Origin: Alphaproteobacteria bacterium
GTDB taxonomy: Bacteria > Pseudomonadota > Alphaproteobacteria > GCA-2731375
Length of the DNA: 64,000 bases
Assembly: GCA_965225945.1 (NCBI GenBank)
Contig: CBDDBZ010000020.1
Coordinates: 32,001 to 96,000, forward strand
Direction: 5' to 3'
The notes under the pieces are model-generated. The model made no database searches. It worked only from the letters and a program-made list of their open reading frames with translations, and was not told the DNA's origin. The translations under genes were made by a program, and so were the position numbers. Below, one piece after another: positions 34,800-64,000 of this stretch. The stretch's first letter is position 1; every line of letters begins with the position of its first letter.

Positions 34800-34871
34800 G
34801 GAGGTGGGCATGGGCAGGCCGCGCGAGGAAACGGCGTGGCGCGCGATGGTTAGGCGTGCCGGAGTGCCCTG

Positions 34872-48590: not shown

Positions 48591-49502
48591 TCATGCGGCG
48601 GGCCTGAGTGACATCGCGGTGTGCCACGCCTGACGAGCTTGAGCGGGGCTCAGGTAGCCGTTCTTCTCCACGATCCACTGGGCATTGTACTGTTCGACGA
48701 ACCCGCGGACGGCGTTCCGCAGCTCCGCGATGTTGCGGTAGATGCGGCCATGGATGATCTGTTCCTTGAGCGTGCGATTGAACCTCTCGGCGACGCCGTT
48801 GGTCTGGGGCTGTTCGACGAAGGCGTAGGACGGCTGGATGCCCCAGAACTTGATCTGGTTGGTGAAGTGGTCCGACAGATACTGGGAGCCGTGATCCATC
48901 CGCAAGGCCAGCCCCCGCGCCGCACCGGCGGAGGTCGAGGCATACAGCCTCGCAAGCCCCATGGAGATCGGCTGAAGGGCGGCGAAGCGGTCGCCTCGCT
49001 TGCACACATGCCAGCCGACGCACTCGGCGTTCCAATGCTCGATGGCGGTGAATATCCAGCCCCAGCCGTCGTCCACCGTGAACACCCGAACGCCGTCCGT
49101 GCCCCACATGAGGTTGGGGGCATGGGTGATGATCTCACCGACATGGGGATTTCCGCCACGGCGGCGGCAGCGATGGGGCGAGAGCAGGTTGTTCTCGCGC
49201 ATCACCCGGAGCACCCGCTTGCGGGAAACACGGATGCCACGACAGACCCGAAGCCGAGCCCAGACCTTGCGGTGTCCCTCGCCCTCCCAGGGGGATGCCT
49301 CCAGGTCGGCCTCGATGGCCACCAGCAGAGCCTCGTCCGAGATCGAGGGCTTCGGTCCCCGGCGCTTTGCTGGTGGGCGCTCAGCGGTGGCCTGCTGCCG
49401 GGATTTCATGGCGTAGAACGAGGAACGGGCAAAACCCCAGGCCGCACAGACCCGCTGGAGGCCGTAGGCCAAACCCGTGCCGGGAGAGGTGGCGGCACTC
49501 AT
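48591..49502 (-). CDS. IS3-family transposase OrfB (rve/DDE)
   Basis: GHRKVW, WGTDG, DHGSQY, NGVAERFNRTLKE. Confidence 0.9.
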   Translation of the reverse strand: MSAATSPGTGLAYGLQRVCAAWGFARSSFYAMKSRQQATAERPPAKRRGPKPSISDEALLVAIEADLEASPWEGEGHRKVWARLRVCRGIRVSRKRVLRVMRENNLLSPHRCRRRGGNPHVGEIITHAPNLMWGTDGVRVFTVDDGWGWIFTAIEHWNAECVGWHVCKRGDRFAALQPISMGLARLYASTSAGAARGLALRMDHGSQYLSDHFTNQIKFWGIQPSYAFVEQPQTNGVAERFNRTLKEQIIHGRIYRNIAELRNAVRGFVEQYNAQWIVEKNGYLSPAQARQAWHTAMSLRPAA

Positions 49503-49909
49503 CGCCGCGACCTCCGCCGCCCCAAAGGGCCGGACGTCTCCGTCTTGGCCTCCAGCAGTTCCACCTGCATGATCAACTCCCCGATCCGCTTCATGGCGAT
49601 GTCCAGTTCCGCCTTTACCGGATCGCCCTTGCGTTCCTTGAGCGAGGCATCGATCCCGGCGATCGCCTTCTCACGCCACTGCTCGAGCCGGAAAATCTCC
49701 ACGCCCAACTGCCGCGACAAAAGTTCCACCGGCTCGCCACGCAAAAGCCGCAGGGCAACCTCACGCTTGCGCGTCACCGTCCACCGCTGGCCAAGTCCCA
49801 GCGGGCCTGCCGGCGAAACCTGGCCCGGGGAAAACGTGGACGAGCCAAGCTCGCCCTCGTTTACCACAGGCCCATCAACAGCAACTTTGTTCTCAAAATT
49901 GTCGGTCAT
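49499..49909 (-). CDS. IS3-family transposase OrfA (HTH)
   Basis: RKREVALRLLRGE...LEQWRE; ATGA overlap with OrfB. Confidence 0.8.
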   Translation of the reverse strand: MTDNFENKVAVDGPVVNEGELGSSTFSPGQVSPAGPLGLGQRWTVTRKREVALRLLRGEPVELLSRQLGVEIFRLEQWREKAIAGIDASLKERKGDPVKAELDIAMKRIGELIMQVELLEAKTETSGPLGRRRSRR

Positions 49910-50449
49910 GTTCCGGTCCTCCTTGGACACTTCGATTAAGCCAATTCTGTGTCCAAGGAAATCGGGTCCGACTCACCACGATGGCCGGAATGCCTGCGCC
50001 GGGGGGGGGGGGGGCGCGAGTGGTGCGGGCGCAGGGAGCGGAGCGACTGAGCCACGGTCGCGTATTGCACCGGCGCTAGCCGCGCAGCGGCGTGGCATTG
50101 CGCGCTATCGCCGTAACGGAGCGTGAGCGGAGTGGAGGACCCCGCAGGGGTTGGCGCAGTGAGAACGTGTGGGACAATGAGACATCATGACGGGATGATT
50201 ATTCTCCCACTCCCACGCCTCTCTTCCACCGTAACCGCGGGCTGGGTGCTGGCAATAGGGGGCACAATCCGGGTCGCGAGGGTGCCCGCACCGATGGCAA
50301 TGAGGTCGTCGTTTAAATCAGACAGGTCGGGATGATCATGATTTAGGGATTGCGGCGTTCCGCATAACGGCGCCAAATGCGGATTGCGGAGCATTCGCCC
50401 AACGCTTTCGGTATGGGATGTATTTCCTGGACTCGAAGAGCACAGCATG

Positions 50450-50489
50450 AAAAAAGGCCGGTCCCACGCCAATCTGGCGGGAACCGGCC
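50450..50489 (-). terminator. Intrinsic terminator downstream of ssb
   Basis: Minus strand GGCCGGTTCCCGCCAGATTGGCGTGGGACCGGCC hairpin followed by T6. Confidence 0.7.
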
Positions 50490-50517
50490 CTGGGGTATGC
50501 GGGAGAAGAAAACCAGC

Positions 50518-50756
50518 TTAGAAGGGGATCTCGCTGTCATCCACCGTCGTGGCGGTTTCGGCGGCCGGCGCGGCGTCGCCGTTCGGCTTGTCGAGAAACT
50601 GGACCCTGCCGCCGGGGACTAGGAGGATCTCGGTCGAGAACCGGTCGCTGTCCTCGCCGTCCTTGCGCCACTTGCGGGTCTGCAGCTTGCCCGAGACGTA
50701 GACCAGGCGGCCCTTCTTCGCGTGCTTCTCCAGCATCTCCACCAGGCCGTCCTGGA
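50518..50756 (-). pseudogene. ssb: ssb 3' part (split by the integrated element)
   Basis: QDGLVEMLEKHAKKGRLVYVSGKLQTRKW...DDSEIPF acidic tip. Confidence 0.9.
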
Positions 50757-50878
50757 CTCGAACTCTCCAATGAAATCAACGTCTTAGGTCGTCCAACCCC
50801 CCCCCCCCCCCCCCCCCCCCAACCGGGGCATTGATTCCAAAAGGGAATTTTCCCGGTTGTCCAACCCGATTCGCGGCG

Positions 50879-51856
50879 ATGAGCGCCCAGCTTGAGCACC
50901 CGCTCGACTCCGTGCCTGAGCCGGTGCGGTCGCACGGTCTGCGGGCCGCGCACGTCGCTCCGCTGGTCGGCAGGCGGGTCGGGCCGGGGAAGCAATTCTG
51001 GGCGAGGCGCGTTCCCGCGCCGCACGCGTGGGCCTATCCGTACATCGCCATGGCCGATGCCGGCGCGACCTGGGCAACGCTCACCTACGACTGCGACAAC
51101 CGCCAAGCGATGGCTTTGGGCCTGAGCGAGCTGCCGTCGTGGAACTGGTTTGCGGAGACGACACGCGGGGCGCACGTGACCTGGGCGCTGGCCGTTCCGG
51201 TCGCGAAGCACGCAGCAGCACGGGCTGCACCAGAGAGATACCTGTCGCACGTGGCCGAATATTATCATGCGGCGCTGGGTGCGGACCCAGCGTTCAATGG
51301 GCTCGGTAGGAACCCTGCGCATCCGGACGCCAAGGTGCTGTGGGGCGCGCCAAGGCCCTACACCCTCGATCAATTGGCGAGCATCTTGCCGTTCAACTGG
51401 CGGCGCCCGAAGGTGGCGACAACGGGGATTGGAAGGAACAACGACCTGTTCCGCACGGGCCTGCGCTGGGCCGGCCGGGAGGCGAACGCGGGCCTCGCCG
51501 TGTTGCCCGCCCTGCATGCCGTGAACGCGGAGGTCGCGGCGTTGCACGGCAAGCCGCCCCTGCCGGACGCAGAGGTCGCCGGCATCGCCCGGTCAATCGA
51601 ACGTTACCGCGAGAGATGGGCGCGCCAAGGCCACAAGCCGTCATGGTTGGCGAGGCAAGCGGCGCGAGGGCGCAAGGGTGGACGGCCGCGCTTGTATGAG
51701 CCCGGCCGGGAGCCATGGGTGCTGGAGGGCATCAGCCGGGCCAGCTGGTATAGACGGCGGCGTGAGACAAAAGCCAATACAGATATTCCCCCCCTCGGGG
51801 GGCCTTGCTCTCCCCCTCCGTCTGCTCTACCTGAACCAAGATCGCTGGCGAGCTGA
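50879..51856 (+). CDS. ColE2/pAL5000-type replicase (Replicase + PriCT + HTH)
   Basis: LTYDCD, GAHVTWAL, LGADPAFNG.GRNP.H, YTLDQL, GRNNDLF, PLPDAEVAGIARSI, PWVLEGISRASWYR. Confidence 0.8.
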   Translation: MSAQLEHPLDSVPEPVRSHGLRAAHVAPLVGRRVGPGKQFWARRVPAPHAWAYPYIAMADAGATWATLTYDCDNRQAMALGLSELPSWNWFAETTRGAHVTWALAVPVAKHAAARAAPERYLSHVAEYYHAALGADPAFNGLGRNPAHPDAKVLWGAPRPYTLDQLASILPFNWRRPKVATTGIGRNNDLFRTGLRWAGREANAGLAVLPALHAVNAEVAALHGKPPLPDAEVAGIARSIERYRERWARQGHKPSWLARQAARGRKGGRPRLYEPGREPWVLEGISRASWYRRRRETKANTDIPPLGGPCSPPPSALPEPRSLAS

Positions 51857-51868
51857 AGGACACAGAGC

Positions 51869-52057
51869 ATGACGGAGCGCAAGGTAATCCTGGAACTCAC
51901 GCCACGGGAGGCGCGCGCACTCGCGAGCTTGCTCGGTCAACTCCGCGCGGCGTTCGAGGGAATCGACCGTGGGGGCTACAAAGGCACGGACCCGCTGTCC
52001 GGCTTGCAAAGCCGCCTTGAGGATGCGATCCGCGCTGCGGCGGATGATGACGGCTGA
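51869..52057 (+). CDS. Small hypothetical protein
   Basis: GAAGGA RBS; co-oriented in the satellite (LELTPREARALA). Confidence 0.5.
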   Translation: MTERKVILELTPREARALASLLGQLRAAFEGIDRGGYKGTDPLSGLQSRLEDAIRAAADDDG

Positions 52058-52165
52058 CCCCCCCCCCTTATGGCACCGCCCAAATCGCCCGTGGGAGGGG
52101 CAGGATCGGGGTGGGGAGTCGCGAACTCCATGAAGACACCGGGCCATGAAGGAAGGGATCGAAGA

Positions 52166-52372
52166 ATGAAAAGAGACTGCGCAACATGCATGTTCTTTGA
52201 CGGTGACTATCCTGGATTGAAAAGCCTTGAGGGGGTTTGCCGAGCCGTGCCACCGACTGTGGTCCTTGATGAAAACCAGTGGCAAACGGGTTGGCCAACC
52301 GTCTACGTGGGTGAGTGGTGCGGTGCGTGGCAGGCTGCGGATGACAAGCGGCAATCACAATCGGCTAATTGA
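52166..52372 (+). CDS. Small Cys-rich phage-type protein
   Basis: CATC...GVCRAVPP...WPTV...WCG pattern common in phage genomes. Confidence 0.6.
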   Translation: MKRDCATCMFFDGDYPGLKSLEGVCRAVPPTVVLDENQWQTGWPTVYVGEWCGAWQAADDKRQSQSAN

Positions 52373-53849
52373 TTACCTGTCCAGCTTAACCGTCTCGCAA
52401 GGCCGTCTCGCCGGACAGGCGTTCGCCGTGCTGCCGTGGCAACGGCGGTTTGTGCGCGGCGCCTTCTCGCCGGGCATCCAGGCGGCGGCCCTGAGCATCG
52501 GCCGAGGCAACGGCAAGACCACGTTGCTCGCGGGGATCGCGGCGGCGACCCTGGATGGACCGCTCGCGGTGCCGCGTGGCGAGACCGTGATCGTGGCTTC
52601 AAGCTTCGAGCAAGCGAGAATCGGCTTTGAGCATGTTCTCGCATTCATGGGCGAGAAGCTGGACGATCACGCGCGCTGGAAAGTTTGGAATACAGCGCAA
52701 CAAGCCCGAATCGAGGATCGCAAGACAGGCGCCAGGGTGCGGTGCATCGGCTCCGATCCGCGCCGGGCGCATGGTCTGGCGCCGGTGCTGGTACTGGCCG
52801 ACGAACCGGCCCAATGGCCAGAGAGCACGGGGGAGCGGATGGTTGCGGCGCTTCGGACGGCGGCGGGCAAGCAACCGCACTCGCGCTTTGTGGCGCTCGG
52901 CACCCGGCCGGCCGATGCCGAACACTGGTTCTCAAAGTTGTTGGTTGGTGGATGCGACTATGCGCAATGCCATGCGGCGCGGGCGAGCGACCCCCCGTTT
53001 CAGCGGCGGACCTGGGCGAAGGCGAATCCCTCCCTCGCGCATATGCCGGATCTGGAGTCGGCGATCCGCACCGAGGCGAAACAAGCCCGCCAGGACCCGG
53101 CCTTGCTTGCCAGTTTCGAGGCGTTGCGGCTCAATCTCGGCACCGAGGATGCGGCGGTTTCCACGCTGCTCGACGCGGGCTTGTGGCGAGCGATCGAAGG
53201 CGTTGCCGAGCTGGACGGGCCGGCGGTTTGGGGCGTCGATTTGGGCACCAGCGCGGCACAGTCCGCGGTGGCCTGCTATCACCCTCAGACGGGCGCGCTG
53301 GCCTGTCTGGCGGCATTCCCTGCGGAGCCGACCCTTGCCGAGCGGGGCTTGCGGGATGGCGTCGGCGGGCTCTATGCCGAGTGCGCGCGGCGCGGCGAGC
53401 TGCTCACCCTGGGGCGGCATACCGTCGACGTGACGGCACTGCTACAGGCGGCGCTCGACCGATTCGGCCGGCCCGCTCGGATCGTCGCCGACCGATGGCG
53501 CGAGGCGGATTTGCGCGAGGCCCTGGAATCCGCCGGCGTGCCGCTCGCCGCGCTCGAATTTCGGGGCATGGGCTTCCGCGACGGGGCGGAAGACGTGCGC
53601 GGCTTCAGGAAGGCGTGCGCCGACCGGCGGGTGACGCCGCAACCGTCGCTCTTGCTCCGGTCGGCGATGGCTGAGGCCCGCACGGTCTCCGACCCGAGCG
53701 GCAACGCGAAGCTATCGAAGGGCTCGCAAGGCGGACGGCGGGCCCGGGCTCGCGACGATGCGGCGGCGGCGGCGATCTTAGCGGTTGCGGCTGGCATCCG
53801 GAACCGCGCCCCGCCGAAACGCCGGTGGCGATATGCCGGGATGGCGTGA
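52341..53849 (+). CDS. terL: Terminase large subunit
   Basis: Q-motif LPWQRRF, Walker A GRGNGKTT, Walker B VLVLADE, nuclease GVDLG, DRWR, DDAAAAAILA. Confidence 0.88.
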   Translation: MTSGNHNRLIDYLSSLTVSQGRLAGQAFAVLPWQRRFVRGAFSPGIQAAALSIGRGNGKTTLLAGIAAATLDGPLAVPRGETVIVASSFEQARIGFEHVLAFMGEKLDDHARWKVWNTAQQARIEDRKTGARVRCIGSDPRRAHGLAPVLVLADEPAQWPESTGERMVAALRTAAGKQPHSRFVALGTRPADAEHWFSKLLVGGCDYAQCHAARASDPPFQRRTWAKANPSLAHMPDLESAIRTEAKQARQDPALLASFEALRLNLGTEDAAVSTLLDAGLWRAIEGVAELDGPAVWGVDLGTSAAQSAVACYHPQTGALACLAAFPAEPTLAERGLRDGVGGLYAECARRGELLTLGRHTVDVTALLQAALDRFGRPARIVADRWREADLREALESAGVPLAALEFRGMGFRDGAEDVRGFRKACADRRVTPQPSLLLRSAMAEARTVSDPSGNAKLSKGSQGGRRARARDDAAAAAILAVAAGIRNRAPPKRRWRYAGMA

Positions 53850-53914
53850 GTCGGCCGCATCCGCGGTTAGAAGATCGACGCTATAATTGCCACCGGATAG
53901 TCTGACATCTCACA

Positions 53915-54409
53915 TTGGCAGGGGAAACAACCGTGAATAATTTATGGACAGCAATCTGCACCGGTGTGGTTGGAGGTGTAGCAGCCGGCCTTATTTTAGC
54001 CTTGTTTTTTTCGCTCCAAAGAAAATGCATAAGGTGGCCGGACCGTAAAGAACAGACCAAGTACCTTGCGGCGTTTATCGAAGATGCAAGGAAAAAGATA
54101 CTCGAAGTCTAAAAACTGCGGTTGCCTGATCCACCAATGCCGGCGGTGGATTCGCGCATATTCGAGGATATCCGTAGCTCTTATCATAAGAAATTTAGAG
54201 TCGAACTAACCTCGATGCTGTCTAATCGTTGCACTCGAATGACCTACGACGAAAAAGAACAAGTGAGTGAGATTTTCCTTCGGCACCATGAATTATTTCC
54301 AGTCTCTCACTTTTCGAGAGCTCAACACGTTGAGAGATTCTCAATGGCCGAGTCGATCACGTGGCTAGGTCTGAAGCCTACGAAACGTGACTTTCTCGAT
54401 ACCAAATGA
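53915..54409 (+). pseudogene. AT-rich moron with an N-terminal TM, interrupted by TAA at 54110-54112
   Basis: ORFs 53915-54112 and 54122-54409 share a frame; visibly lower GC than the flanks. Confidence 0.5.
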
Positions 54410-54699
54410 AGGGTTCTCAACATCATAGACGGCTTAGTTACAAGCGCTGGCAATCGACCCGCCACGCCGTTTTCCGCCGCGACGGCTACCGTTGCCGCGC
54501 GTGCGGCCGGGCCGGTCGACTTGAGTGCGATCACATTGTCCCGCTGCATGTCGACGCCGGGCAAAATCCCTACGACCCGGACGGTTGCCAGGCGCTTTGC
54601 CGACGATGCCATATCGAGAAAACCCGGCAGGAAAACCGCCGCGAGCCGACCCCTGCCGAGTCCGCATGGCGCGAGCTGGTAGCGGAAATGCTGGATTAA
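54406..54699 (+). CDS. Phage packaging-type HNH endonuclease
   Basis: RW...R..VFRRDGYRCRACG...ECDHIVP...CQALCRRCHIEKT. Confidence 0.85.
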   Translation: MKGSQHHRRLSYKRWQSTRHAVFRRDGYRCRACGRAGRLECDHIVPLHVDAGQNPYDPDGCQALCRRCHIEKTRQENRREPTPAESAWRELVAEMLD

Positions 54700-54823
54700 T
54701 CCTCGATATTGCGCCGCGCCGCGTAATACCGAGCAATATCAGGGGCTTATCTGGGTTTTTCGTTGACTTCTCACACTCGACACCCCCAACTAGTACTCGA
54801 TTTGTTCTTCTCCGGGGGTTCCC

Positions 54824-56110
54824 ATGACCGATGCCCAGCGCCGTCTCCGCGAGCTTCGCGACCGCCAATCGAAAGAGCGCGGCCGGATGGCCGAGCTTTC
54901 CCGCGTCGATAGCCTGACAGATGAGACTCGCGCCGAACTCGATCAGCTCGAGTCGGGCACCGCGGATTTGGAACGGCTGCTCCGTGCGGCGCGAACCGCT
55001 GTTGAGACCGAGGAGTCCGAACAGCGCGCGGCCGGCGCTGCGGCGCGGGCGCCGGAGGGCGATGCCGAGACCCGCGAGCGGGCCGAGCTGCGCGGCAAGG
55101 TGAAGCTGACCGGCTACGTCGCGGCGGCGGTCGAACAGCGCGGCGCGGACGGCGCCGAGGCCGAATACAACGCGGCGCTCGGCATCGCCGGTAACCGCTT
55201 CCCCCTGGAGCTTCTGGCGCCGCCCGAGAAACGCGCGTCGGTCGAGCAGCGCGCGACCACGGACGTTGACACCCAGACGATGCCGCGCCGCTGGTTGGAT
55301 CGGCTGTTCGCCGGCACGGCCGCGATGCGGCTTGGCATCAGCATGGAAAGCGTGCCGGTCGGGGTGGCGAGCTTCCCTGTCACCACGGCGGGCGCCAGCG
55401 CGGCCCAGCGCCAACGGTCGAGCGATGCCGCCGCCGATGCCGCCTGGACGGTCGGCGTCACCGAAATGAAACCAAAAAGAAACGCCGTCCGGTTGCTGTT
55501 CTCGATCGAGGACGCGGCGCGAATTCCGGGACTCGAAAGCGCGTTGACCCGCGATCTTCGAATGGCGCTGACCGAGGGCGTCGACCGGGCAATTTTCCTT
55601 GGCGATGCGGCCGCGACAGGCACGGACGCGGATATCGTCGGGCTAAACACGGCGGCGATCACCGAGGTTTCAGTCACACAAGCGAACAAGGTTCTTGGGC
55701 CCGGCACCCTTGCCGCCTTCACCGGGCTGGTCGATGGCGTTCATGCGAACATGCTGGGCGACCTCAACGTGGTCGCGGCGGTCGGCGCATGGCGATTGTG
55801 GGAAGACACGATCGTCAACAGCGCCGCCGACAACATGACGCTGGCCGCGTTCTTGCGGATGGCCGGGTTGTCGTGGGCGGCGCGCGGCGAGATCGAAACC
55901 GCAACCGATGACGGCGACTTTGCGGCCTTCGTCGGGCGCGGCATGGGCATCGACGGCGCGGGCGTCTCAGCGATTTGGCAAGCCGGCGAACTGGTTCGAG
56001 ATCCGTATTCAGCTGCGGCGAAGGGCGAAGTCGCGCTGACGCTAATATATCTTTGGGATTTCGCTTTGCCGCGCGCGTCCAATTTCGCCCGGATCGTCTT
56101 CGACGCCTGA
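54824..56110 (+). CDS. HK97-fold major capsid protein with an N-terminal coiled-coil (delta) domain
   Basis: Coiled-coil N-terminus; SIEDAARIPGLESALTRDLRMALTEGVDRAIFLGD; RDPYS..AKGEV; C-terminal DFALPRASNFA. Confidence 0.8.
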   Translation: MTDAQRRLRELRDRQSKERGRMAELSRVDSLTDETRAELDQLESGTADLERLLRAARTAVETEESEQRAAGAAARAPEGDAETRERAELRGKVKLTGYVAAAVEQRGADGAEAEYNAALGIAGNRFPLELLAPPEKRASVEQRATTDVDTQTMPRRWLDRLFAGTAAMRLGISMESVPVGVASFPVTTAGASAAQRQRSSDAAADAAWTVGVTEMKPKRNAVRLLFSIEDAARIPGLESALTRDLRMALTEGVDRAIFLGDAAATGTDADIVGLNTAAITEVSVTQANKVLGPGTLAAFTGLVDGVHANMLGDLNVVAAVGAWRLWEDTIVNSAADNMTLAAFLRMAGLSWAARGEIETATDDGDFAAFVGRGMGIDGAGVSAIWQAGELVRDPYSAAAKGEVALTLIYLWDFALPRASNFARIVFDA

Positions 56111-56209
56111 CGGAATAGGGTGGCGCCGTACCCCCGCCGCCGCCCTCAAGCTGGCCGGGAGCGCCCGACCTCCATCGCCCCCGGCCGGCGCCCCCTTCGG
56201 AGGCGATCG

Positions 56210-57169
56210 ATGATGGAATTTGAGCGCCGCGTTTCAGGGATCGAGCTTCGAGCCGAGGGCCGGCGGCTGTCCGGCATCGTCATGAAATACGGCGACGTTT
56301 CTCCCTCGCACCGGGAGCGGTTTGAGCCGCGCGCGATTCGGCTGGCCGAATCGGTTCACCTCGACCTGCATCATGATCCCGAGCGCGCCATCGCCTGGCA
56401 CCCCGGCGGCGGGCTCACCCTGGCCAACGGCCGCGCCGAGCTGAAAATGACGGCCGTGTTGCCGCCGATCCCTGCGGCTAATCGTGCCTTGGACGAGATC
56501 CGCGCCGGCCGCGTCGGCGGTCTGTCGGTCGAATTCCGCGCCGTGAAAGAGCGGCGGGACGGCGATATTCGGGTGATCGAGGATGCGATCCTGAGCGGCA
56601 TCGCGATCGTGAAGGCCCCGAGCTACGGCGGCTCGCGAGTCGAGGCGCGGCGGCGGTCGGGCCGGACCATGCGGGCGCGCATCCCTGCCGACCGGAGTGT
56701 CGAGTGCCGGTGCAGCGGAGCCGAGTGCAAATTCGCGAAGATGGTGAAGGAGGGCATGGAACAGGCGTTCAATTCGGCATTCCGGCAATTCGAGCGCGAG
56801 GTGATCGCCGGTTTCGGGAGCTACGACATGCCCCTTGCCTCGGCATCGTCCGGCACGCTTCGCGGGCGAATTCTCCTCAACGGCGATGGCGAGGTCGAGA
56901 TAGACCTGCCGGCCGATAGCGTCGGCGCTGCGACCCTGGCCGCGCATGAAGCCGCCGGCGTGATCGTGCGGCCCCATATCGACGCGGCGGCGGCCGAGTC
57001 GACGGTCGAGGGCGGGACCCGCGTCTATCAGACCATGCCGATTCGCGCCTTCCTCGTTTCGGCGACAGATGCCCGCGAGGGCTGGCCGGCGCCGGTGCTT
57101 ACCGCCACGCCCGAAGAGCTTGCGAGCGCCGAGGCGCCCCGAAGCCGGAGGCTCGCGCGGTGGCTGTAA
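56210..57169 (+). CDS. HK97-family prohead protease with a second degenerate protease-like domain
   Basis: LSGIVMKYG, ERFEPRA, LHHD, GGLSVEF, IAIVKAPSY; second half REVIAG...PLASASSGTLR...EIDLP. Confidence 0.8.
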   Translation: MMEFERRVSGIELRAEGRRLSGIVMKYGDVSPSHRERFEPRAIRLAESVHLDLHHDPERAIAWHPGGGLTLANGRAELKMTAVLPPIPAANRALDEIRAGRVGGLSVEFRAVKERRDGDIRVIEDAILSGIAIVKAPSYGGSRVEARRRSGRTMRARIPADRSVECRCSGAECKFAKMVKEGMEQAFNSAFRQFEREVIAGFGSYDMPLASASSGTLRGRILLNGDGEVEIDLPADSVGAATLAAHEAAGVIVRPHIDAAAAESTVEGGTRVYQTMPIRAFLVSATDAREGWPAPVLTATPEELASAEAPRSRRLARWL

Positions 57170-57471
57170 CCCTCACCGCGGCCGAGCTGGCCGAAGCTGT
57201 CGGCACCGACTCGGCGACGGCGACGCGGCTGCTGGTCGTGGCGACCGAGCTTGTGAACCGATACGCGCCGGACGCCCCGGCCGCGATCAGCAATGAAGCC
57301 GTGATCCGCACGGCCGGCTGGCTTGCGGAGCAACCGGCCGCGTCGATCACGGGCGAGACCGAAGGCGATGTTCGGACGTTCTACGCGCCGACGATGCAAT
57401 CGGCGCTTCGGCACTCCGGGGCGATGGCGCTTTTGACTTACTGGCGGGTCCGCCGGGCGGGGGCGATATGA
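57160..57471 (+). CDS. Putative head-tail connector (gp6/gp15-like)
   Basis: About 100-aa helical protein directly after the protease; ends GAMALLTYWRVRR (cf. A..LL.PYR). Confidence 0.6.
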   Translation: MAVTLTAAELAEAVGTDSATATRLLVVATELVNRYAPDAPAAISNEAVIRTAGWLAEQPAASITGETEGDVRTFYAPTMQSALRHSGAMALLTYWRVRRAGAI

Positions 57472-57926
57472 CGCGGCGGCTTGCCTTGCGGCGTTTCCCG
57501 AACGAGGTCGTTCGCCGGCGCCAGGCGCCGGGCGGCTTTAATCAATTTGGCGAATTCGAGCCGGGCCCGGTTGTGGAAACGATTTTCCCGGCACGGGTTT
57601 TGCCGCTGTTGCTTTCGGACTCGGATTTTGTCGGCGGGGTGTCCCTCGTAGAGCGCCTAAAGATTTTCGTGCCGCGCGGGATCGCGCGCCGCCGGGGCCA
57701 AGGTGACGCGCTTGCTTGGCATGGCGCCGCGCTTGCTTGGAACGGCGATCCGCTGCGATGGGGCGGCGGCGACGGGGCGCTGATCGAGGATGATTCGATT
57801 CCGTTCCTGGCCGCGTTCGAGGACCGGCAGGCCGACGTGTTGGTCTATGCGGGGATCGAGTATGTCGTGGAGGAAAGCCAGGATTGGCCGCGCTACACGC
57901 GAGCAATTGCGCTAAGGGAAACTTAA
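57468..57926 (+). CDS. Putative head closure/stopper protein
   Basis: RRQAPGGFNQFGEF...; D.LVYAGIEYVV beta pattern; position after the connector. Confidence 0.5.
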   Translation: MTRRLALRRFPNEVVRRRQAPGGFNQFGEFEPGPVVETIFPARVLPLLLSDSDFVGGVSLVERLKIFVPRGIARRRGQGDALAWHGAALAWNGDPLRWGGGDGALIEDDSIPFLAAFEDRQADVLVYAGIEYVVEESQDWPRYTRAIALRET

Positions 57927-57929
57927 ATC

Positions 57930-58988
57930 ATGCGTTGGCCATGGCAACGGGAAACCCGCGAGGCGACGGGCGGCTATACCGAGATCATATCCCGGTTGGT
58001 GGAGGCGCAGGCGGCTGGAACCACCCAGCAAGCGAGCGCCACGGCCGCCACCGAGGCCGTGGCGGGCCTGCTGTCGAGGTCCTTTGCGGCGGCGATGGTC
58101 GAGGGTCCGGGCGACGTCGCCGGGATCGTGACGCCGCGGTGTCTGGCGCAGATCGGCCGCGACTTGGTTCGCGTCGGCGAATCGCTTCACGTTATCCGAT
58201 ACATGGGCGGGCGCATGATGCTGGTGCCGGCGTCAACATGGTATTTCGAGGGCGGCGCCGACCCGGACGCATGGCTTTGCACGGCAACCGCCTACGGGCC
58301 TTCCGGCTCGTCGACATGGCGGGTGCCGCAATCGTCGGTTGTGTTCGTCACATGGGGCTCGCCGACCGCCCGGCCCTATCACGGGCTCTCGCCGTCGAGC
58401 TGGGCGGCCGACACAGCACGGCTGAACGCGAACACCGAGAAATCGCTTGCCGACGAAGCGGGCGGGCCCGTCGCCCAGCTCTTGCCGGTTCCCCAAGACG
58501 GCGGCGACGATGGCGACGAGGACCCGCTCGCCATGCTCCGCAAGGATATCCGGGACGCCAAGGGCAAGGCCCTGTTGGTCGAAACCGTCGCGAGCGGCTG
58601 GGGCGAAGGCAAAACCGCCGCGCCGCAGTCCGATTGGCAGCAACGGCGCCTGGGGCCGCAACCGACCGAGGCGATGGTGAAGCTCGCGGACTCGGCCTTC
58701 GCCAGGGTGCTCGCCGCGTGCGGGTGCTCCCCGGCGCTGTTCGACGATAGCGACGGAACGAGCAAACGAGAGGCGCTTCGCCAGTGGCACCTCGGCACCG
58801 TCCAGCCGCTCGCGCGGCAGCTGGAACATGAACTATCGACGAAATTCGAGGTCCCGGTGACGCTCCGCTTCGACCTCTACAACGTCGATCTGGCCGGCCG
58901 GGCGCAAGCGTTCCAGAAACTCGTTGCCGGCGGCGTGGCCGTGGACCAGGCGTTGGCAACGACCGGGCTGCTGGTGTTTGACGAGTGA
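57930..58988 (+). CDS. Phage portal protein (short HK97-like)
   Basis: DLVRVGESL, YHGLSP, VLAACGCSPALF, TVQPLARQLEHELSTKF, DLAGRAQAFQKLVAGG. Confidence 0.75.
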   Translation: MRWPWQRETREATGGYTEIISRLVEAQAAGTTQQASATAATEAVAGLLSRSFAAAMVEGPGDVAGIVTPRCLAQIGRDLVRVGESLHVIRYMGGRMMLVPASTWYFEGGADPDAWLCTATAYGPSGSSTWRVPQSSVVFVTWGSPTARPYHGLSPSSWAADTARLNANTEKSLADEAGGPVAQLLPVPQDGGDDGDEDPLAMLRKDIRDAKGKALLVETVASGWGEGKTAAPQSDWQQRRLGPQPTEAMVKLADSAFARVLAACGCSPALFDDSDGTSKREALRQWHLGTVQPLARQLEHELSTKFEVPVTLRFDLYNVDLAGRAQAFQKLVAGGVAVDQALATTGLLVFDE

Positions 58989-59215
58989 CCAAGTCTGCCC
59001 GGACTGCGGCCGGCCGCGCGCCCGCTCTTGATCGAGGAATAGAGTTCCGGCCGGTTTCCCACCCGGTCCGGCCGGATTAGGGTGCGGCCCGGTTTCCCCC
59101 GATTCCGGGCCGCACTCGCGTCCGGCGGCACACGAAGGGGGGGGCTGCATTTTGCGCCCCCCCCCCCCCTCGCCGGTGTCGGGGTGCCAGGTTGGCACCC
59201 TTCCCCTTTTGAACG

Positions 59216-59260
59216 AACCAAGAAAACTTGGTTGACGTATCAATATTTTTGGTTTACCAT
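59216..59260 (+). promoter_or_regulatory. Sigma70 promoter with an overlapping palindromic operator
   Basis: TTGACG (59232-59237) - 17 bp - TACCAT (59255-59260); AACCAAG-AAAA-CTTGGTT (59216-59233) overlaps the -35. Confidence 0.7.
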
Positions 59261-59285
59261 TCTTTCAGAACCAACGGAGCGCGAA

Positions 59286-59681
59286 ATGCCCAAGCGGGAC
59301 GATAGACGACTGGTTTCCGTGCCCATCGAAACCTTCAAGGCGATTCAGCAATTGCAGCGTGAGCTGGCGGCGGTCACGGGGCAGAGGGTGACTATCGGCG
59401 ACGTGGTCGCGCGTGGCGCGCAGTGCCTTTGCGATGCGCACGCGGGGCAGGCATGGCTGTCTCCCGCCGAACAGGAAAAACCTCTACGGGAGCGGGTTCG
59501 AACGGCGGTGATGTCGAATCTCATTGCTCTGCGTGAGCTGGTTCCGGGGATCGGCATCGGCGAAATCGGGTACGACGCGGAACACGATGCCGTGTTGGTG
59601 GCCGTCGAGGGCGAAGATGACCCGGTGCCCCTCTATCCCGACTCGCCGACCACTTGGGCGGCGAGGCGCCGGCTGAACTGA
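59286..59681 (+). CDS. Hypothetical protein, possible ribbon-helix-helix regulator
   Basis: GGAG RBS; LVSVPIETFKAIQQLQ...TIGDVVARG beta-alpha-alpha pattern. Confidence 0.5.
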   Translation: MPKRDDRRLVSVPIETFKAIQQLQRELAAVTGQRVTIGDVVARGAQCLCDAHAGQAWLSPAEQEKPLRERVRTAVMSNLIALRELVPGIGIGEIGYDAEHDAVLVAVEGEDDPVPLYPDSPTTWAARRRLN

Positions 59682-59698
59682 GGGATGGGCCGCGGCTG

Positions 59699-59908
59699 AT
59701 GGCGAATCAGAAAGCCACCGTCCGACAATCCGAGTTGACGCGCTACCTGAAGGCCATGCGCGACGCGGGCATCGCGGAGGGCCGGCTTGAGATTACGAAG
59801 CCTGACGGGACACGAATCGCAATCACCTCGGGCAAGGCTTCCGAGATCGCCGACGCCAGCGATGACATCGACGCGATGATCGAAAAGGTGCCGCATGCGA
59901 TACCGTAA
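59699..59908 (+). CDS. Putative excisionase/recombination directionality factor
   Basis: ATVRQSELTRYLKAMRDAG...EI.PDG; overlaps the integrase start. Confidence 0.55.
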   Translation: MANQKATVRQSELTRYLKAMRDAGIAEGRLEITKPDGTRIAITSGKASEIADASDDIDAMIEKVPHAIP

Positions 59909-60965
59909 GGAATTCCCCGGCGTGACGGTTGTACGGGATCGGCACGGCCGGCTGCGGTACCGGCTGCGCCGCACGACCGACGGCCGCAAGATTGACGGCT
60001 ACTTGCCGGGCGTCATTGGATCGACGGAATTCCGCGCGGCATACCATGAGGCGACCGAGGGCGTCCGGGCCGCGGGCCGGCGGGCACAGCCCGGCACCGT
60101 CGGCTATCTGATCGAGGCGTATCTGGCCGGCACCGCATTTCGGAACTTGGCGGATAGGACGCGAGCGGACAAACGCTGGCGCCAGGACTGGATCAAGGAA
60201 GCCATCGGGAGCGCCCGGTACGCTTCCATCCAGCCGCGCCACATCGAGGCGTTGATGTCGAAGAAAGGCGGGCCGGCCGCGGCGAACCGACTCAAGAAGG
60301 ACCTCTCTCAGCTGTTCCGATTCGCCGCGAAACGATTCGGCTACCAAGGCCAAAATCCCGCCGCGCTGGCGGATACGCACAAGGAGAGGTCGGAGGGTTA
60401 TCACACCTGGACTGACGACGAGATCGAGGTATTCCGGGCCAAGTTTCCGACTGGAACGAAGGCACGGCTGGCGCTTGAGATTTTCCTAGGGACGGGTGCT
60501 GCCCGGCAAGACGCGGCGACGCTCACCCGGGCGAGCATACGCGGCCTTCGCCTCTTCTATCGACGCGGGAAGACCGGCCAGGAAGTGGACCTGCCAATCG
60601 TGGCCGAGTTGGCGAAGGAACTGGCGTATCTGCCGCCGGACCAAATGATGCTGCTGGCGCACGGGGAGAGAGCGAAGGCCTACAGCGCCTCACCGCTCGG
60701 CAACTGGTTCAGGGACAGGTGCGAAGAAGCCGGCTTACCGCACTGTTCGGCGCACGGGCTGCGGAAGGCCGGCGCCCGGCGCTTGGCTGAGGCCGGTGCG
60801 ACCGAATGGGAGGTGATGGCCTTCCTCGCCCACCGGACCGCCAAGGAGGCGAGCCGCTATACCGCAGCGGCGAATAGGTCGATGCTCACGACGAGAGGTA
60901 TGGCGAGACTCAGCACGAAACCCGAACAAATCTTGTCCAACCTTCCGTCGAGGTTGGACAAATAG
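59895..60965 (+). CDS. int: Tyrosine recombinase/integrase
   Basis: DRHGRLRYR arm domain, WTDDEI, TGAAR, KTG, SAHGLRKA, LAH, RYT catalytic set; abuts the right att. Confidence 0.92.
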   Translation: MRYRKEFPGVTVVRDRHGRLRYRLRRTTDGRKIDGYLPGVIGSTEFRAAYHEATEGVRAAGRRAQPGTVGYLIEAYLAGTAFRNLADRTRADKRWRQDWIKEAIGSARYASIQPRHIEALMSKKGGPAAANRLKKDLSQLFRFAAKRFGYQGQNPAALADTHKERSEGYHTWTDDEIEVFRAKFPTGTKARLALEIFLGTGAARQDAATLTRASIRGLRLFYRRGKTGQEVDLPIVAELAKELAYLPPDQMMLLAHGERAKAYSASPLGNWFRDRCEEAGLPHCSAHGLRKAGARRLAEAGATEWEVMAFLAHRTAKEASRYTAAANRSMLTTRGMARLSTKPEQILSNLPSRLDK

Positions 60966-61013
60966 GGAGATTAAGTCATTGATATACAACGACGAAAAAC
61001 AACGGGTGACTGT

Positions 61014-61198
61014 CCGTCCTGGAAGGTGACGATGCGGTGCCATTCGGTGCGGTCCACCTTATCGCCCGAGTTTTTGTCGAGGTAGCTTTCGTCGGTCGCG
61101 ATCGAGACGTTGGCGACACGGCCGCCGTTGGTGAGATGGCTGATGGTGGCGTCGGCGCCGAGGCGTCCGATCAGCTGGGCGTTATTCAATCCGAACAT
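61014..61198 (-). pseudogene. ssb: ssb 5' part
   Basis: MFGLNNAQLIGRLGAD...ATDESY...RTEWHRIVTFQDG. Confidence 0.9.
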
Positions 61199-61305
61199 GA
61201 TCAATCTCCTATGATCCGGGTTATGACATCGGGTTAGCGAACGGGAACCGGTCTCTCTCGATTCCTTCCCCCTTCACACTTCTCTAAGCCCCCCTCTTCC
61301 TCTAT

Positions 61306-61497
61306 TCAGCCGTCCGCGCCGGTATATGTCCGGGAGCCGAGAACCTCGCGGATCGCGTGGGCCGGCAATCCGGCCGCGGCCAGCAGCGCGCCGGCATCGG
61401 GAAGCGGTGCGGTGAAGCCGGGATCGGCATCGTTTGTGCTATCGGGATTGAAAAGGGTGTCGTTGGACTCGGTCGAGGTATGTCTGGAATCGAACAT
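61306..61497 (-). CDS. Small hypothetical protein (island)
   Basis: GGAGG RBS before MFDSRH. Confidence 0.4.
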   Translation of the reverse strand: MFDSRHTSTESNDTLFNPDSTNDADPGFTAPLPDAGALLAAAGLPAHAIREVLGSRTYTGADG

Positions 61498-61658
61498 CTG
61501 GCACCTCCGGTTGATGGGGTTGAGACACCGCCCGGAGGGGACTCTCTTTTCCCTTGGGCGCGTCGCCCTTCTCTTTGCCTTCCTCAAACTCTCTTGCACG
61601 TTGGTCGAGGCAGGCCGGAGAGTTCGGGGGCATTGCCCGGCAATCGCCGCGCGGTTCA

Positions 61659-61973
61659 TCAAAGGGCCGCGTCGTTGGCGTCCATGATGGCGATGATGAC
61701 GTCGTCGAGGCTGCCCCTGGCGCTCATCAAGGTGTGTTCCAGATGGAGAAGCTGGTGGCGGAGCCCGGCGCGGTCGTCGCAGGACGGGTTGTTGGGCAGA
61801 CGCATGATGGCGTTCCGCAACTCGGCGAAGCGCTCCGCCAGATCCTTCATGTGAGCTGCAGCTTCGCGTGCGCCGGTCCGGGCTTCCTGCAGGAACCCGC
61901 CGGGATCGGGACGGGTGCCGGCCATGGTCTCGAAATCGCCGGTCGTGGAGTGTGGTGTGAGGGTGTCAAACAT
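61659..61973 (-). CDS. Hypothetical coiled-coil protein (island)
   Basis: GGAGG RBS before MFDTLT. Confidence 0.5.
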   Translation of the reverse strand: MFDTLTPHSTTGDFETMAGTRPDPGGFLQEARTGAREAAAHMKDLAERFAELRNAIMRLPNNPSCDDRAGLRHQLLHLEHTLMSARGSLDDVIIAIMDANDAAL

Positions 61974-62181
61974 CGGGTTCCTCCGTGGATTGCAAGACAG
62001 AATGGCGGCGATGCCGGAATTGCCTCCCGCGCACCCCCCGAACCGCCCCTGCCGTGCTGCCCTCGACCTCCATGTGCCGCAACGTGCGGGTGGGAGGGCC
62101 TCACTCAAAACGTTGCCGTGGCCTGCTCCTGGCCCATCATGCCGGGTGGCAAGTTACCGGGTGTAAACCGGCCTGCCCGGT

Positions 62182-62439
62182 TCAATGGGTGGTTTCATCG
62201 CGGGCGGCGGACATGGACCGGCCGGCGATGGCGGACCAGGCATCCCGGTCGAGTCCGAGCTTGGCGTTCAGGCGATCGCAGATCCTCAGAGCATCGTCGA
62301 GTGTGAGCCCAACCAACGCTGTGGGGACGTAGCCCGGCATCGAATCGAACACGATTCGGATCTGCTGTGGCATGTTGTCGAAGTCATAAGCTGGACAAAA
62401 CGCGTAGACGGGATCGTCGGGCAGCGTATGAGATGTCAT
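62182..62439 (-). CDS. Hypothetical protein (island)
   Basis: RBS-like GGAAG; plausible globular sequence. Confidence 0.5.
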   Translation of the reverse strand: MTSHTLPDDPVYAFCPAYDFDNMPQQIRIVFDSMPGYVPTALVGLTLDDALRICDRLNAKLGLDRDAWSAIAGRSMSAARDETTH

Positions 62440-62616
62440 GACGATATCTTCCATATGGCGGATTGGACTGTTCGTGCCTGTGAGCGGCGCAAAGGCGCAA
62501 TTTCCCGGATGTGGGTGTCTTCGTGGAGTGAAGAATCCTACAACCTTTTGCGCGTAGCGGGCGGTAGCAAGGTTTGGCACGCCCCCGCGCCGGATACCGG
62601 ACGGGAGCGTGCGGGT

Positions 62617-64000
62617 TTACACCGGGCTCGCAGCCGCGAGCGGCCAGCGTTCGAGGATGCGGCCGAGGTCGATGTATTCGGGCACGAATACACGGGTCCG
62701 CCACGAGACGATCTCGGTGGCGCAGCCCATGCGCTTGAGCGCGGCGAGGTCGCCGTCGGCCGGCCCCTCGATCTCGACGCGCACGGCGCCCATCAGGCGC
62801 CGCCTTGCGAGGCGCCAGCCGTTGGCGAGATCGAAGGACGCGCCGCGGGTAAGGATCGCCTCGTGCATCTCGGCCGAACTCATGAGCGGTCCGCAGGCCA
62901 GTCCGAAGGCGTCGTGGAAGGCGTACGCCTGCTCGGGCGTCAGAACCCGGCCGAGCAGGCTTTCCCCGGCGTCGGTCGCAAGCCGGCGCACCCGCATGTT
63001 TTCGCCCGGCAGGCGGTCCCAGATGGGGAGCAGCAGGCCGGTGACCAGCCACAGGCGGGATTCGGTGTGGCTGGGCAGCCCCTCGATCTCCGCATCCCAC
63101 GACGCGCGCCAACGATCTTCGCCTGCCTCCTCCCAGTTCGAGGCGGCAAGCTCCTCCGCGGCCATGGGCTCGCGGGCGGCGGGACGGACCAGGCGGACCC
63201 GGGCTTCGACTCCACCGTCCTCGAACATCCGCGACGGCGCGGGCAGAACCACGGCGGCGCGCTTCGAGCGGGTGTTGATGACGGGCCGCCCGTCGCGCAA
63301 GGCGAGGGCATCGCCGGCCGTCAGCGGCACGAGCCGGTCGCGGCGGACGATCTCGACAAGCTCGGTGGCGGCGCCCGAGGCTTCATGAACGTGAACCGTC
63401 TCGCGCGAGGCCACGGTGAGCGAGTCGGCCCGGATGGTCTCGACGCCCTGCTCATGGGTCCCGGCCTCGATGGCCTGCTCGATGTTGGCCTCGATGCGGG
63501 TTTCCAACTCGGCGAACAGTTCGTTCTGTTCGGCGATGGGCAGGGCCAGCAGGCGATTGAGGAACCGGGGCATCGGCGGCAGGTCTTCCTTGAGGGAGCC
63601 TTCCCAAATCAGCTTCAGACCGGTGGCCTCCTCGAAGCGGTCCATGGACCAGCCCGTTATGTTGCCGCGCCACAGTGCGATGTAGAACTGGCGCAGCGCC
63701 ACCTTGGCGTAGGGGCTTTCCAGATTGTCGCTGGCCCGGAACATGGTGGCGTCGCCGCCGCCCATGGCGGTCTGCGAATCGCGCTGGCCCCGGGTGATGG
63801 CGCCGAGGCTGTCGAGACGCCGGGCGATGGTGGCGATGAAGCGGCGCTCGCCCTTCACATCCGTGGTGACCGGGTCGGAACAGGGGGGCCGAGGCCTGGT
63901 GCGTTCGATGGGTGCGGCCCAGCCCCTGGATCGCCTGGTCGGCCCGCCAGCCCGGTTCCAGCAGGTAATGGATACGCCGCGCTGTATTGCCGCAGCCGAG
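62617..64000 (-). CDS. Strawberry-notch family helicase/methylase, C-terminal part (+1 frameshift near 63872; 5' end outside the window)
   Basis: HYLLEPGWRADQAIQGLGRTHRTHQ, then in the shifted frame TTDVKGERRFIATIARRLDSLGAITRGQR, FLNRLLAL, LVTGLLLPIW. Confidence 0.85.
   Translation of the reverse strand, partial: SAAAIQRGVSITCWNRAGGPTRRSRGWAAPIERTRPRPPCSDPVTTDVKGERRFIATIARRLDSLGAITRGQRDSQTAMGGGDATMFRASDNLESPYAKVALRQFYIALWRGNITGWSMDRFEEATGLKLIWEGSLKEDLPPMPRFLNRLLALPIAEQNELFAELETRIEANIEQAIEAGTHEQGVETIRADSLTVASRETVHVHEASGAATELVEIVRRDRLVPLTAGDALALRDGRPVINTRSKRAAVVLPAPSRMFEDGGVEARVRLVRPAAREPMAAEELAASNWEEAGEDRWRASWDAEIEGLPSHTESRLWLVTGLLLPIWDRLPGENMRVRRLATDAGESLLGRVLTPEQAYAFHDAFGLACGPLMSSAEMHEAILTRGASFDLANGWRLARRRLMGAVRVEIEGPADGDLAALKRMGCATEIVSWRTRVFVPEYIDLGRILERWPLAAASPV

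Follow-up and report, generated by a model that had tools for sequence, protein, structure and literature searches.

A 10.3-kb integrated element with a phage head module and no recognisable tail genes in an alphaproteobacterium

An integrated element interrupts an ssb gene

We analysed a 64,000-nucleotide stretch of an alphaproteobacterial genome (assembly GCA_965225945.1, contig CBDDBZ010000020.1, positions 32,001 to 96,000; hereafter the window), in which an integrated element at 50747-61023 codes for a set of phage head proteins and for no recognisable tail, and is probably a phage satellite that forms its own capsids. The element is 10,267 bp long, counted between equivalent positions of a flanking 10-bp direct repeat, CCGTCCTGGA, whose left copy forms the attL core (50747-50756) and whose right copy forms the attR core (61014-61023). 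Both cores were placed by the repeat match and by the joint of an empty site: in one Logan metagenome contig (run X5), position 50751 is followed directly by 61019, with exactly 10,267 bases left out.

The two flanks are the halves of a single gene for a single-stranded DNA-binding protein (ssb), encoded on the minus strand, and they abut in frame at the repeat. The C-terminal fragment, ending in an acidic ...SEIPF tail, lies at 50518-50742 (minus strand; PHROG 44 SSB, E 1.6e-11), and the N-terminal fragment at 60971-61204 (minus strand; PHROG 44 SSB, E 1.1e-16). With the element in place, the frame of the N-terminal fragment continues through 13 codons of element sequence before it meets a stop, and the gene is therefore inactivated. 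Another ssb gene, on contig C22 of the same genome, is 41% identical to the interrupted copy, which is thus a spare, non-housekeeping one. The sequence-only reading of this DNA had described a bounded 10,267-bp element with intact att ends, and the repeats, the split ssb gene and the empty-site contig bear this out; that the target is an ssb gene, inactivated by the insertion, goes beyond it. Scans for tRNA genes and Rfam families gave no match in the window, the element ends included, so the att site here is not a tRNA.

In all four metagenome runs the ssb flanks are two to three orders of magnitude deeper than the element, in summed contig depths, which are not copy numbers, and the flanking sequence is therefore far commoner in these metagenomes than the insert. 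The flanks together with the adjacent IS3-type transposase (49500-50800 and 60784-62500) reach summed depths of 10^4-10^5 in the four runs, compared with 10-400 for the element, which marks the ssb-flank sequence as a unit that is repeated or very abundant in those communities. No RNA dataset was listed as carrying the element.

A short motif, TTGTCCAACC, is concentrated at the element ends. It has eight matches in the window at one mismatch or fewer, compared with 1.81 expected, and none of 100 shuffles reaches eight; all three exact copies and one copy with a single mismatch lie within ~120 bp inside the ends. The left-end cluster (50789-50866, plus strand) has two motifs, at 50789-50798 (one mismatch) and 50857-50866 (exact), around a C24 tract at 50797-50820, and the right end has an inverted pair of exact copies at 60933-60942 (plus strand) and 60952-60961 (minus strand), at the 3' end of int. 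The motif also occurs at both ends of a related element in locus L024, and we regard the copies as putative integrase-binding sites. The ssb core repeat is not reused by the relatives of the element: L024 carries a related integrase at a different site, with a candidate 14-bp repeat at its positions 6771 and 16945.

Head and packaging genes

All called genes of the element lie on the plus strand, according to the listing of open reading frames (ORFs) and a filter on GC content at third codon positions (GC3). The order from rep to int proposed from the sequence alone was reproduced by these calls in combination with family, fold and profile evidence.

The large terminase gene, terL (52227-53849), matches PHROG 9 (E 1.4e-56) and the Pfam families Terminase_6N and TerL_nuclease, and its closest phage relatives are HK97-like (28% identity, E 3e-21). 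Because the homologues align from about residue 36-50, the start is probably the ATG at 52341. The next recognisable gene codes for an HNH endonuclease of the packaging-associated type (54406-54699; PF01844, E 4e-8; PHROG 589 and 144 at E 1e-19).

The 428-amino-acid (aa) major capsid protein (54824-56110) has no Pfam family match, although a paralogue on contig C34 of the same genome has a weak match to Phage_capsid. AlphaFold2 (AF2) modelling of the window protein from a family alignment of 69 sequences gave a mean predicted local distance difference test score (pLDDT) of 90.8, and the model has helices in its N-terminal region and an alpha/beta body after them. At least 343 Foldseek matches to the Protein Data Bank (PDB) were found at E <= 0.001, with a best E of 4.8e-12 and with HK97 itself at 2e-9; nearly all those listed are capsid proteins of tailed phages or of the Rhodobacter capsulatus gene transfer agent (RcGTA), together with three encapsulin-type cages that share the fold. 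As modelled, it is a major capsid protein of the HK97 fold, in which ~130 aa at the N-terminus form a scaffolding domain of the delta type. It is followed by a prohead serine protease gene (56120-57169; PF04586, E 7e-12; PHROG 80), with an S78 domain at residues 46-185. A C-terminal extension of ~165 aa (residues ~186-349, 56675-57169) has no family match; it is kept in the related loci L003 and L004 and absent in L001, L024 and L025, which have the other head subtype of the family.

The portal protein (352 aa, 57930-58988) belongs to the HK97 family by its profile matches. As a single sequence it matches PF04860 at E 9e-9, with 35.3 bits, under the 39.1 cut-off, whereas a profile of 25 sequences finds solved portals in the PDB, namely 9lbn_H (2.5e-20), the HK97 portal 8cez_A (1.7e-16) and the RcGTA portal (2.4e-8). 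Single-sequence searches of PDB chains with the capsid and portal proteins gave no match, the portal being matched as a profile only. The capsid and portal calls of the sequence-only reading thus hold in structural and profile tests.

Two small genes lie between the protease and portal genes. A head-closure (stopper) protein of 152 aa (57468-57926) is identified by its predicted fold (AF2 from 28 sequences, pLDDT 80.3): the top 18 Foldseek matches in the PDB are all phage or gene transfer agent (GTA) neck chains, including the SaPI1 neck, the SPP1 connector and RcGTA, at modest values (best E 6.5e-4), and a lead from Atlas concurs with the fold. Upstream of it, a 103-aa protein (57160-57471) is a probable gp6-like head-tail adaptor. 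Here the Atlas lead is a score of 0.96 against clusters with the name head-tail connector, PF05135 being present in 19 of 30 matches; the protein has no Pfam or PDB sequence match, and its profile drew a blank both against the PDB and, with hhalign, against the connector of EcCIEDL933, the capsid-forming island of Escherichia coli discussed below. It is conserved in six related loci.

Replication, integration and small genes

At the left end, a replication protein (50831-51856, with its true start likely to be the ATG at 50879) combines a Replicase family domain (PF03090, E 7e-11) with PriCT_1 (PF08708, E 2e-4) and lacks a helicase domain. Two small ORFs (51869-52372) lie upstream of or overlap terL: one of 62 aa (51869-52057) and one of 100 aa that is Cys-rich (52070-52372). 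Neither has a Pfam, PHROG or PADLOC family or a tblastn homologue in the related loci. Between terL and the HNH gene is a variable slot (53850-54405), set apart by its low GC content (~0.55-0.57), with a 65-aa hydrophobic ORF and a 95-aa ORF that have no family in Pfam, PHROGs or PADLOC. The slot spans ~1 kb in L004 and ~0.3 kb in L003, and is lacking in L001 and L024; its ORFs are putative accessory cargo.

Downstream of the portal gene is a 665-bp spacer (58989-59653) containing a C13 tract (59157-59169). An ORF at 59082-59681, possibly extending only over 59286-59681, is doubtful, having no family and not being called by the GC3 filter; it could conceivably code for a regulator, although this is unproven. 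The 84-aa product of an adjoining gene (59654-59908), which overlaps the start of int, is xis-like by position; its sole family match is a weak one to a PHROG of unknown function, and homologues adjoin the same integrase type in L005 (57%) and L024 (40%). The right end is occupied by a tyrosine integrase gene (59895-60965; PF00589, E 1.4e-9; PHROG 1, E 1.3e-30).

In agreement with the sequence-only reading, searches of every ORF of the 10,267 bp with Pfam and PHROGs found no family of tail, tape-measure, lysis, holin, cI/cro or small terminase (TerS) proteins, and PADLOC found no defence family among seven small or unassigned ORFs. The only positional candidates for TerS are the 62-aa and 100-aa ORFs, which lack conservation even in L003, where TerL shares 83% identity with that of the window. 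We considered whether the element could be a complete tiny temperate phage, with tail genes hidden among the unannotated small ORFs, given that six ORFs or ORF-like stretches (62, 100, 65, 95, about 131-199 and 84 aa) are without a family. These family-less ORFs total less than 2 kb, however, and their positions, upstream of terL and in the slot before the HNH gene, fit regulation, TerS or cargo. Moreover, the small ORFs are not conserved in relatives with 73-85% identical head modules, whereas tail genes would co-vary with the head, and a hidden tail is scarcely credible.

Related elements share the head module and exchange the rest

A second, paralogous element is present in the same genome, on contig C34 at 26289-37208 (L001 8289-19208). 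Its ends are marked by a 52-nt repeat, the 3' half of a tRNA-Lys gene, with 10,868 bp between the repeat copies, and its order is int, an O-like replication initiator gene, two small ORFs, terL, HNH, capsid, a short protease, an adaptor-like gene, portal and three small genes. The initiator ORF contains five 22-nt iterons (L001 10856-10989), and the three extra small genes after the portal are conserved. The head proteins of the two elements are 55-69% identical over most of their length, and the adaptor-like gene 41%, whereas their integrases, att sites and replication modules are unrelated.

We inspected 12 places with the same capsid gene (the window, L001, L003-L009, L024, L025 and G191:C3). 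Whole head modules with both flanks in view are found at seven of them (the window, L001, L003, L004, L007, L024 and L025), in five genomes, and each of these seven elements spans ~8.5-11 kb from the integrase gene to the last conserved gene; contig ends cut two others (L006 and L009). Replication modules vary between the Replicase/PriCT_1 type of the window, the O-like initiator of C34 and a primase/helicase in L025, and an integrase of the window type is also paired with the other head subtype, in L024 (60% identity). A recognisable tail gene is seen at none of the 12 places and a tape-measure-sized gene in none of the seven whole elements; among the relatives, Pfam or PHROG scans took in ten ORFs of L003, L004 and L007 together with those of L001 that were unassigned, a part of the ORFs of these loci.

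The remaining three places (L005, L008 of genome G006, and G191:C3:120516-123240) hold decayed copies with split capsid genes, in-frame TGA stops, and portal or terL missing. Decayed copies sit beside intact ones in the same genomes, and chromosome OZ253470.1 carries three copies.

Such copies lend some colour to the view that the window element is itself an inert remnant of an HK97-like prophage whose tail, lysis and immunity modules have been deleted, as does the failure to recognise either TerS or a regulator. Several observations argue otherwise. Both att ends of the element are intact, and the empty site differs from the occupied one by exactly the element. The seven loci in five genomes have a common content of ~8.5-11 kb in spite of different integrases, att sites and replication modules, and the gene order of the window element is unlike that in every phage record fetched (seven annotated records of eight). 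Comparing the window with L003 or L004, the ratio of nonsynonymous to synonymous substitution (dN/dS) is 0.11-0.43 in 14 of 14 comparisons, with synonymous divergence (dS) of about 0.7-3.7; by this sequence measure, all seven head and packaging genes are under purifying selection. The exact ends, the empty site, the modular relatives and the selection on the head genes therefore strongly disfavour simple decay, and we judge a remnant very unlikely. The sequence-only reading had likewise argued against simple decay, and had named tail and lysis modules beside homologous head genes as the finding that would speak for a deleted prophage; the att ends, the empty site, and the tail-less paralogue and five further tail-less loci uphold its argument.

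Comparison with capsid-forming islands, phages and other systems

The closest described counterparts are the phage-inducible chromosomal islands of the capsid-forming kind (cf-PICIs). According to the text of the preprint that describes them (bioRxiv 10.1101/2022.09.08.507074), proteobacterial cf-PICIs have the conserved order capsid, protease, portal and head connectors, followed by hnh, terS and terL. We located EcCIEDL933 in the chromosome of E. coli O157:H7 EDL933 (NZ_CP008957, 1680329-1694760), where the annotation shows exactly this order. EcCIEDL933 resembles the window element in being an integrative island that carries int, a replication gene, HNH, TerL, capsid, an S78 protease, portal and head completion genes but no tail or lysis genes, and the order capsid, protease, portal is common to both. 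The sequence-only reading had called a capsid-first, portal-last module unconventional; given the published order and its occurrence in EcCIEDL933, that part of its claim falls away. Nor did a plasmid-type replicase prove to be a trait of the lineage, since in the relatives its place is taken by a primase/helicase or by an initiator of the O-like type with iterons.

There are also clear differences. EcCIEDL933 is 15.4 kb long and the window element 10.3 kb. In the latter, terL and HNH are upstream of the capsid gene rather than downstream of the connectors, two connector genes precede the portal, int and xis are downstream of the portal at the far end, and there is no P27-type TerS, AlpA or DUF927 primase; the host, moreover, is alphaproteobacterial. 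The portals are homologous by profile only (hhalign end to end, probability 99.2, E 1e-19; 16% identity), and the TerL (21.6% identity, E 8e-7) and protease (24.7%, E 6e-6) are distant. As reported in the same preprint, packaging-module similarity to EcCIEDL933 within the proteobacterial cf-PICI family is 50-90%, and the window element falls short of this with 21.6% for TerL, 24.7% for the protease, 16% for the portal and none for the capsid. The SatelliteFinder definition of cf-PICIs, as given in the main text of PMC10085698, has 11 core components and forbids tails and holins. The window element respects this ban and has the integrase, HNH, TerL, portal, protease, major capsid protein and head-tail connector; TerS and an AlpA, MerR or Stl regulator were not found, and the primase-replicase slot is filled by the protein with PF03090 and PriCT_1, a type unlike the DUF927 primase of EcCIEDL933. 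For the head-tail adaptor there is the 103-aa protein, with its Atlas lead (0.96) to clusters of the PF05135 type and no Pfam, PDB or hhalign match.

The nearest capsid relatives outside the class are in small elements of Xanthomonadales and Burkholderiales (L010-L012) and in IMG/VR contigs (L033-L042; 5,974-11,120 bp), at 25-29% identity over most of the length. These relatives are likewise in small contexts without visible tails, and their proteases and TerL proteins are 27-30% and 27-28% identical to those of the window. However, L010 and L011 have a portal and a protease that clearly belong to the EcCIEDL933 type (35-48% identity), and the gene order of these relatives is the canonical one of cf-PICIs. 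The IMG/VR scan, made with exact peptide patterns that may miss close relatives, returned only these 25-29% relatives for the single capsid protein and no relative for the portal. Among 50,697 phage records, the capsid and portal proteins have no tblastn match at E <= 1e-3; TerL matches 259 of these records, all below 60% identity, the best being HK97-like at 28%.

We placed TerL in an IQ-TREE phylogeny of 21 sequences (seven alphaproteobacterial elements, six gamma- and betaproteobacterial small elements and small records, EcCIEDL933 and seven phages), rooted on three phages of Firmicutes and Actinobacteria; few sequences were sampled, and several of the branches are long. The seven alphaproteobacterial elements form a single clade with 100/100 support, set on a long branch; its sister group (99/99) contains HK97, a Burkholderia phage and the gamma- and betaproteobacterial small elements, with EcCIEDL933 outside. 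The TerL of these small elements groups with HK97 and the Burkholderia phage (97/98 support), not with the alphaproteobacterial clade. From these sequences, the alphaproteobacterial TerL appears to be a distinct lineage outside the sampled cf-PICI and phage groups, and the proposal of a distinct lineage made from the sequence alone fits the tree. A record filed as 'Ralstonia phage YO182_2' (L044, ON170310.1, 18.7 kb, unannotated) has a TerL that shares 66% identity with the one in L010, a small element of Luteimonas, and groups with a Burkholderia phage; it may be satellite-like, or a partial record filed as phage.

With HK97 and HK97-like siphoviruses, the window element shares an HK97-fold capsid with a delta domain, an S78 protease, an HK97-family portal, an HNH-associated terminase and gp6-/gp7-like head completion. 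HK97 itself, however, is ~40 kb long with the order TerS, TerL, portal, protease, capsid, connectors, tail and lysis, whereas the window element is without tail, lysis and recognisable TerS. In the eight phage records fetched, the seven annotated ones show terL followed by portal (or, in Burkholderia phage vB_FUBS1, by the prohead protease), and the window order differs from all of them.

Classical PICIs, including the Staphylococcus aureus pathogenicity islands (SaPIs), and P4-like satellites are similar to the window element in having an integrase, a replication module and a small size. The swapping of modules among relatives, as in the family described here, is a feature of PICIs. Classical PICIs, SaPIs and P4-like satellites remodel capsids encoded by their helpers, whereas the window element has its own capsid, portal, protease and TerL. 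Small HK97-type heads and the bacterial class are common to RcGTA and the window element, and the RcGTA portal and stopper are among the profile and fold matches. GTAs are gene clusters fixed in the chromosome that include tail genes, lack an integrase, att site and replicon, and package host DNA; the window element, in contrast, is mobile (integrase, att, empty site), patchy (found in four of 401 genomes, see below) and tail-less. The Streptomyces satellites MulchRoom and MiniFlayer, according to the description in PMC10690885, have a full set of capsid and packaging genes unrelated to cf-PICIs by sequence and are a precedent for independent origins of a capsid-forming lifestyle; they differ in their Actinomycetota hosts, virulent helpers, direct terminal repeats and lack of an obvious replicase. 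Marine virion-encapsidated integrative mobile elements (VEIMEs) of Alphaproteobacteria, as described in PMC9618062, encode no major capsid genes.

Distribution

Of 8,000 scored candidates, at least 1,340 are homologues of the capsid protein (E <= 0.001); identity is 73% or more throughout the best 120, with many on contigs of ~8-12 kb. A separate search matched the protein to 2,099 cluster representatives at 50% identity. Named homologues are from metagenome-assembled genomes (MAGs) of Alphaproteobacteria. In an even sample of the class, the capsid is found at E <= 1e-20 in four of 401 genomes (three of 336 high-quality ones), and none of three genomes of the same family has the capsid gene. 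The metagenome runs that hold the element include sponge metagenomes.

In the main text of PMC10085698, cf-PICI hosts are Enterobacteriaceae, Pasteurellaceae, Morganellaceae and several families of Firmicutes, with genera such as Bordetella, Pseudomonas and Xanthomonas; the words 'Alphaproteobacteria', 'Rhizobi', 'Rhodobacter' and 'Caulobacter' do not occur in that main text, although the supplementary host lists could still contain alphaproteobacterial cf-PICIs. A literature search, in the texts it reached, found no report of capsid-forming PICI satellites in Alphaproteobacteria, the lone co-mention being the title of a reference.

A probable capsid-forming satellite

We propose that the element is probably an integrated, cf-PICI-like, capsid-forming phage satellite of an alphaproteobacterial lineage, which takes its tails from a helper phage. 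Satellite behaviour, that is, dependence on a helper, induction and the formation of particles, is what the gene content suggests. The element would appear to work like a cf-PICI, but it departs from the described cf-PICI family in TerS, regulator and sequence relatedness, which would make it a variant of capsid-forming satellites rather than a member of that family.

Several findings weigh against this proposal. TerS, a core component of cf-PICIs, has no family match in any ORF, and no AlpA, MerR or Stl-type regulator or repressor was found in Pfam or PHROGs. The capsid and closure proteins have no detectable sequence similarity to their EcCIEDL933 counterparts (closure was compared as a profile), and the adaptor assignment has the language-model lead as its sole source. 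No circular, back-joining junction of the attP type is among the 15 joints listed of metagenome contigs, and individual copies can be dead, as the three decayed ones of the 12 inspected attest. Finally, a search of the 96.6%-complete assembly for a helper, made with four Pfam families only (capsid PF05065, tape measure PF10145, sheath PF04984 and portal PF04860), found only a broken portal on contig C4; a search with four families cannot prove that a helper is absent, and a phage arriving from outside can also be the helper.

At that site (G000:C4:3500-6192), a terminase-sized ORF is followed by an HK97-family portal gene split by a TAG stop, with nothing phage-like downstream. This remnant of a head module is possibly a decayed GTA or prophage.

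The lack of a resident helper prophage or GTA tail cluster, within the reach of these four families, could also be read as a sign that the element needs no helper, being a minimal tail-less virus or a GTA-like producer whose capsids exit the cell and deliver DNA without a phage tail; the great distance of the head module from those of cultured phages would agree with this. The conserved head-closure and adaptor-like genes, however, make sense only with a docking tail, there is no lysis or receptor-binding gene, and the integrase, att sites and replication modules, along with the occurrence in four of 401 genomes, indicate a mobile element and not a domesticated GTA. With so narrow a helper search, and with incoming phages able to serve as helpers, we regard a helper-independent agent as unlikely.

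For the proposed satellite, we envisage the following cycle. Infection by a helper phage, or its induction, would lead xis and int to excise the element, and the replicase would amplify the excised DNA. The capsid protein would assemble on the portal, and the protease would remove the delta domain. Phages of the HK97 type use HNH-dependent cos packaging, as stated in bioRxiv 10.1101/2022.09.08.507074, and an HK97-type TerL beside an HNH gene points to packaging of the cos type here; TerL and HNH would thus package a unit genome of ~10 kb by an HK97-like mechanism, with the small-terminase function supplied either by the helper or by a small ORF that escaped recognition. The adaptor and closure proteins would complete the portal vertex. 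Because they are conserved and no tail genes are encoded, we infer that a foreign tail docks on this vertex, preformed helper tails being the presumed source, and lysis by the helper would free the particles.

A broader picture, which we offer tentatively and think somewhat doubtful, is that the alphaproteobacterial elements evolved independently as a fourth lineage of satellites that form capsids, and that they abound in metagenomes associated with sponges. They would have no satellite TerS, relying on a helper TerS or on an unrecognised specificity factor; their hosts would lack a resident tailed prophage, with tails coming from incoming, possibly virulent phages; and replication and integration modules would be freely swapped around a fixed core of TerL, HNH, capsid, protease, connectors and portal.

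In the texts consulted, the hosts from which capsid-forming satellites were described in 2022-2023 are Enterobacteriaceae, Pasteurellaceae and Firmicutes, and the family reported here would extend the tail-stealing strategy to Alphaproteobacteria. The capsid-protease-portal order and the tail-less design of cf-PICIs were already known; what differs here is the alphaproteobacterial lineage, the arrangement with TerL and HNH ahead of the capsid gene, the connectors before the portal, and int and xis at the far end. A compact, att-defined 10-kb unit, with two different copies in one genome, would offer a system for studying how heads dock with foreign tails, and the family would also suit the questions of how small the T number of such capsids is and of how packaging gains its specificity when no TerS can be recognised.

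Neighbourhood of the insertion and homopolymer tracts

The ssb neighbourhood contains a gene for a strawberry-notch-type helicase and is flanked by IS3- and IS4-type transposases. The helicase gene adjoins ssb (62617-63999 and beyond, C20:95436-96225) in two overlapping open frames and may be frameshifted; transposases near ssb lie at 42632-43753 and 48591-49930. An integrative and conjugative element was considered for this region and dropped, there being no VirD4/TraG family in the assembly and the helicase gene being in two overlapping frames. These mobile-element-like surroundings look like the decayed leading region of a conjugative element with insertion sequences (IS), and an element lodged in a spare ssb gene amid many other mobile elements is an example of nesting among them.

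Three of the 15 G/C homopolymer tracts of at least 12 nucleotides in the genome lie within 9 kb here: G14 at 50001-50014, and the C24 (50797-50820) and C13 (59157-59169) tracts of the element. A C14 tract lies just upstream of the other ssb gene, on C22. The G/C tracts could be a means of phase-variable expression of rep and int, or a promoter feature specific to the lineage. The G14 tract is five bases shorter in contigs of three runs, and contigs are seemingly cut at the C24 tract.

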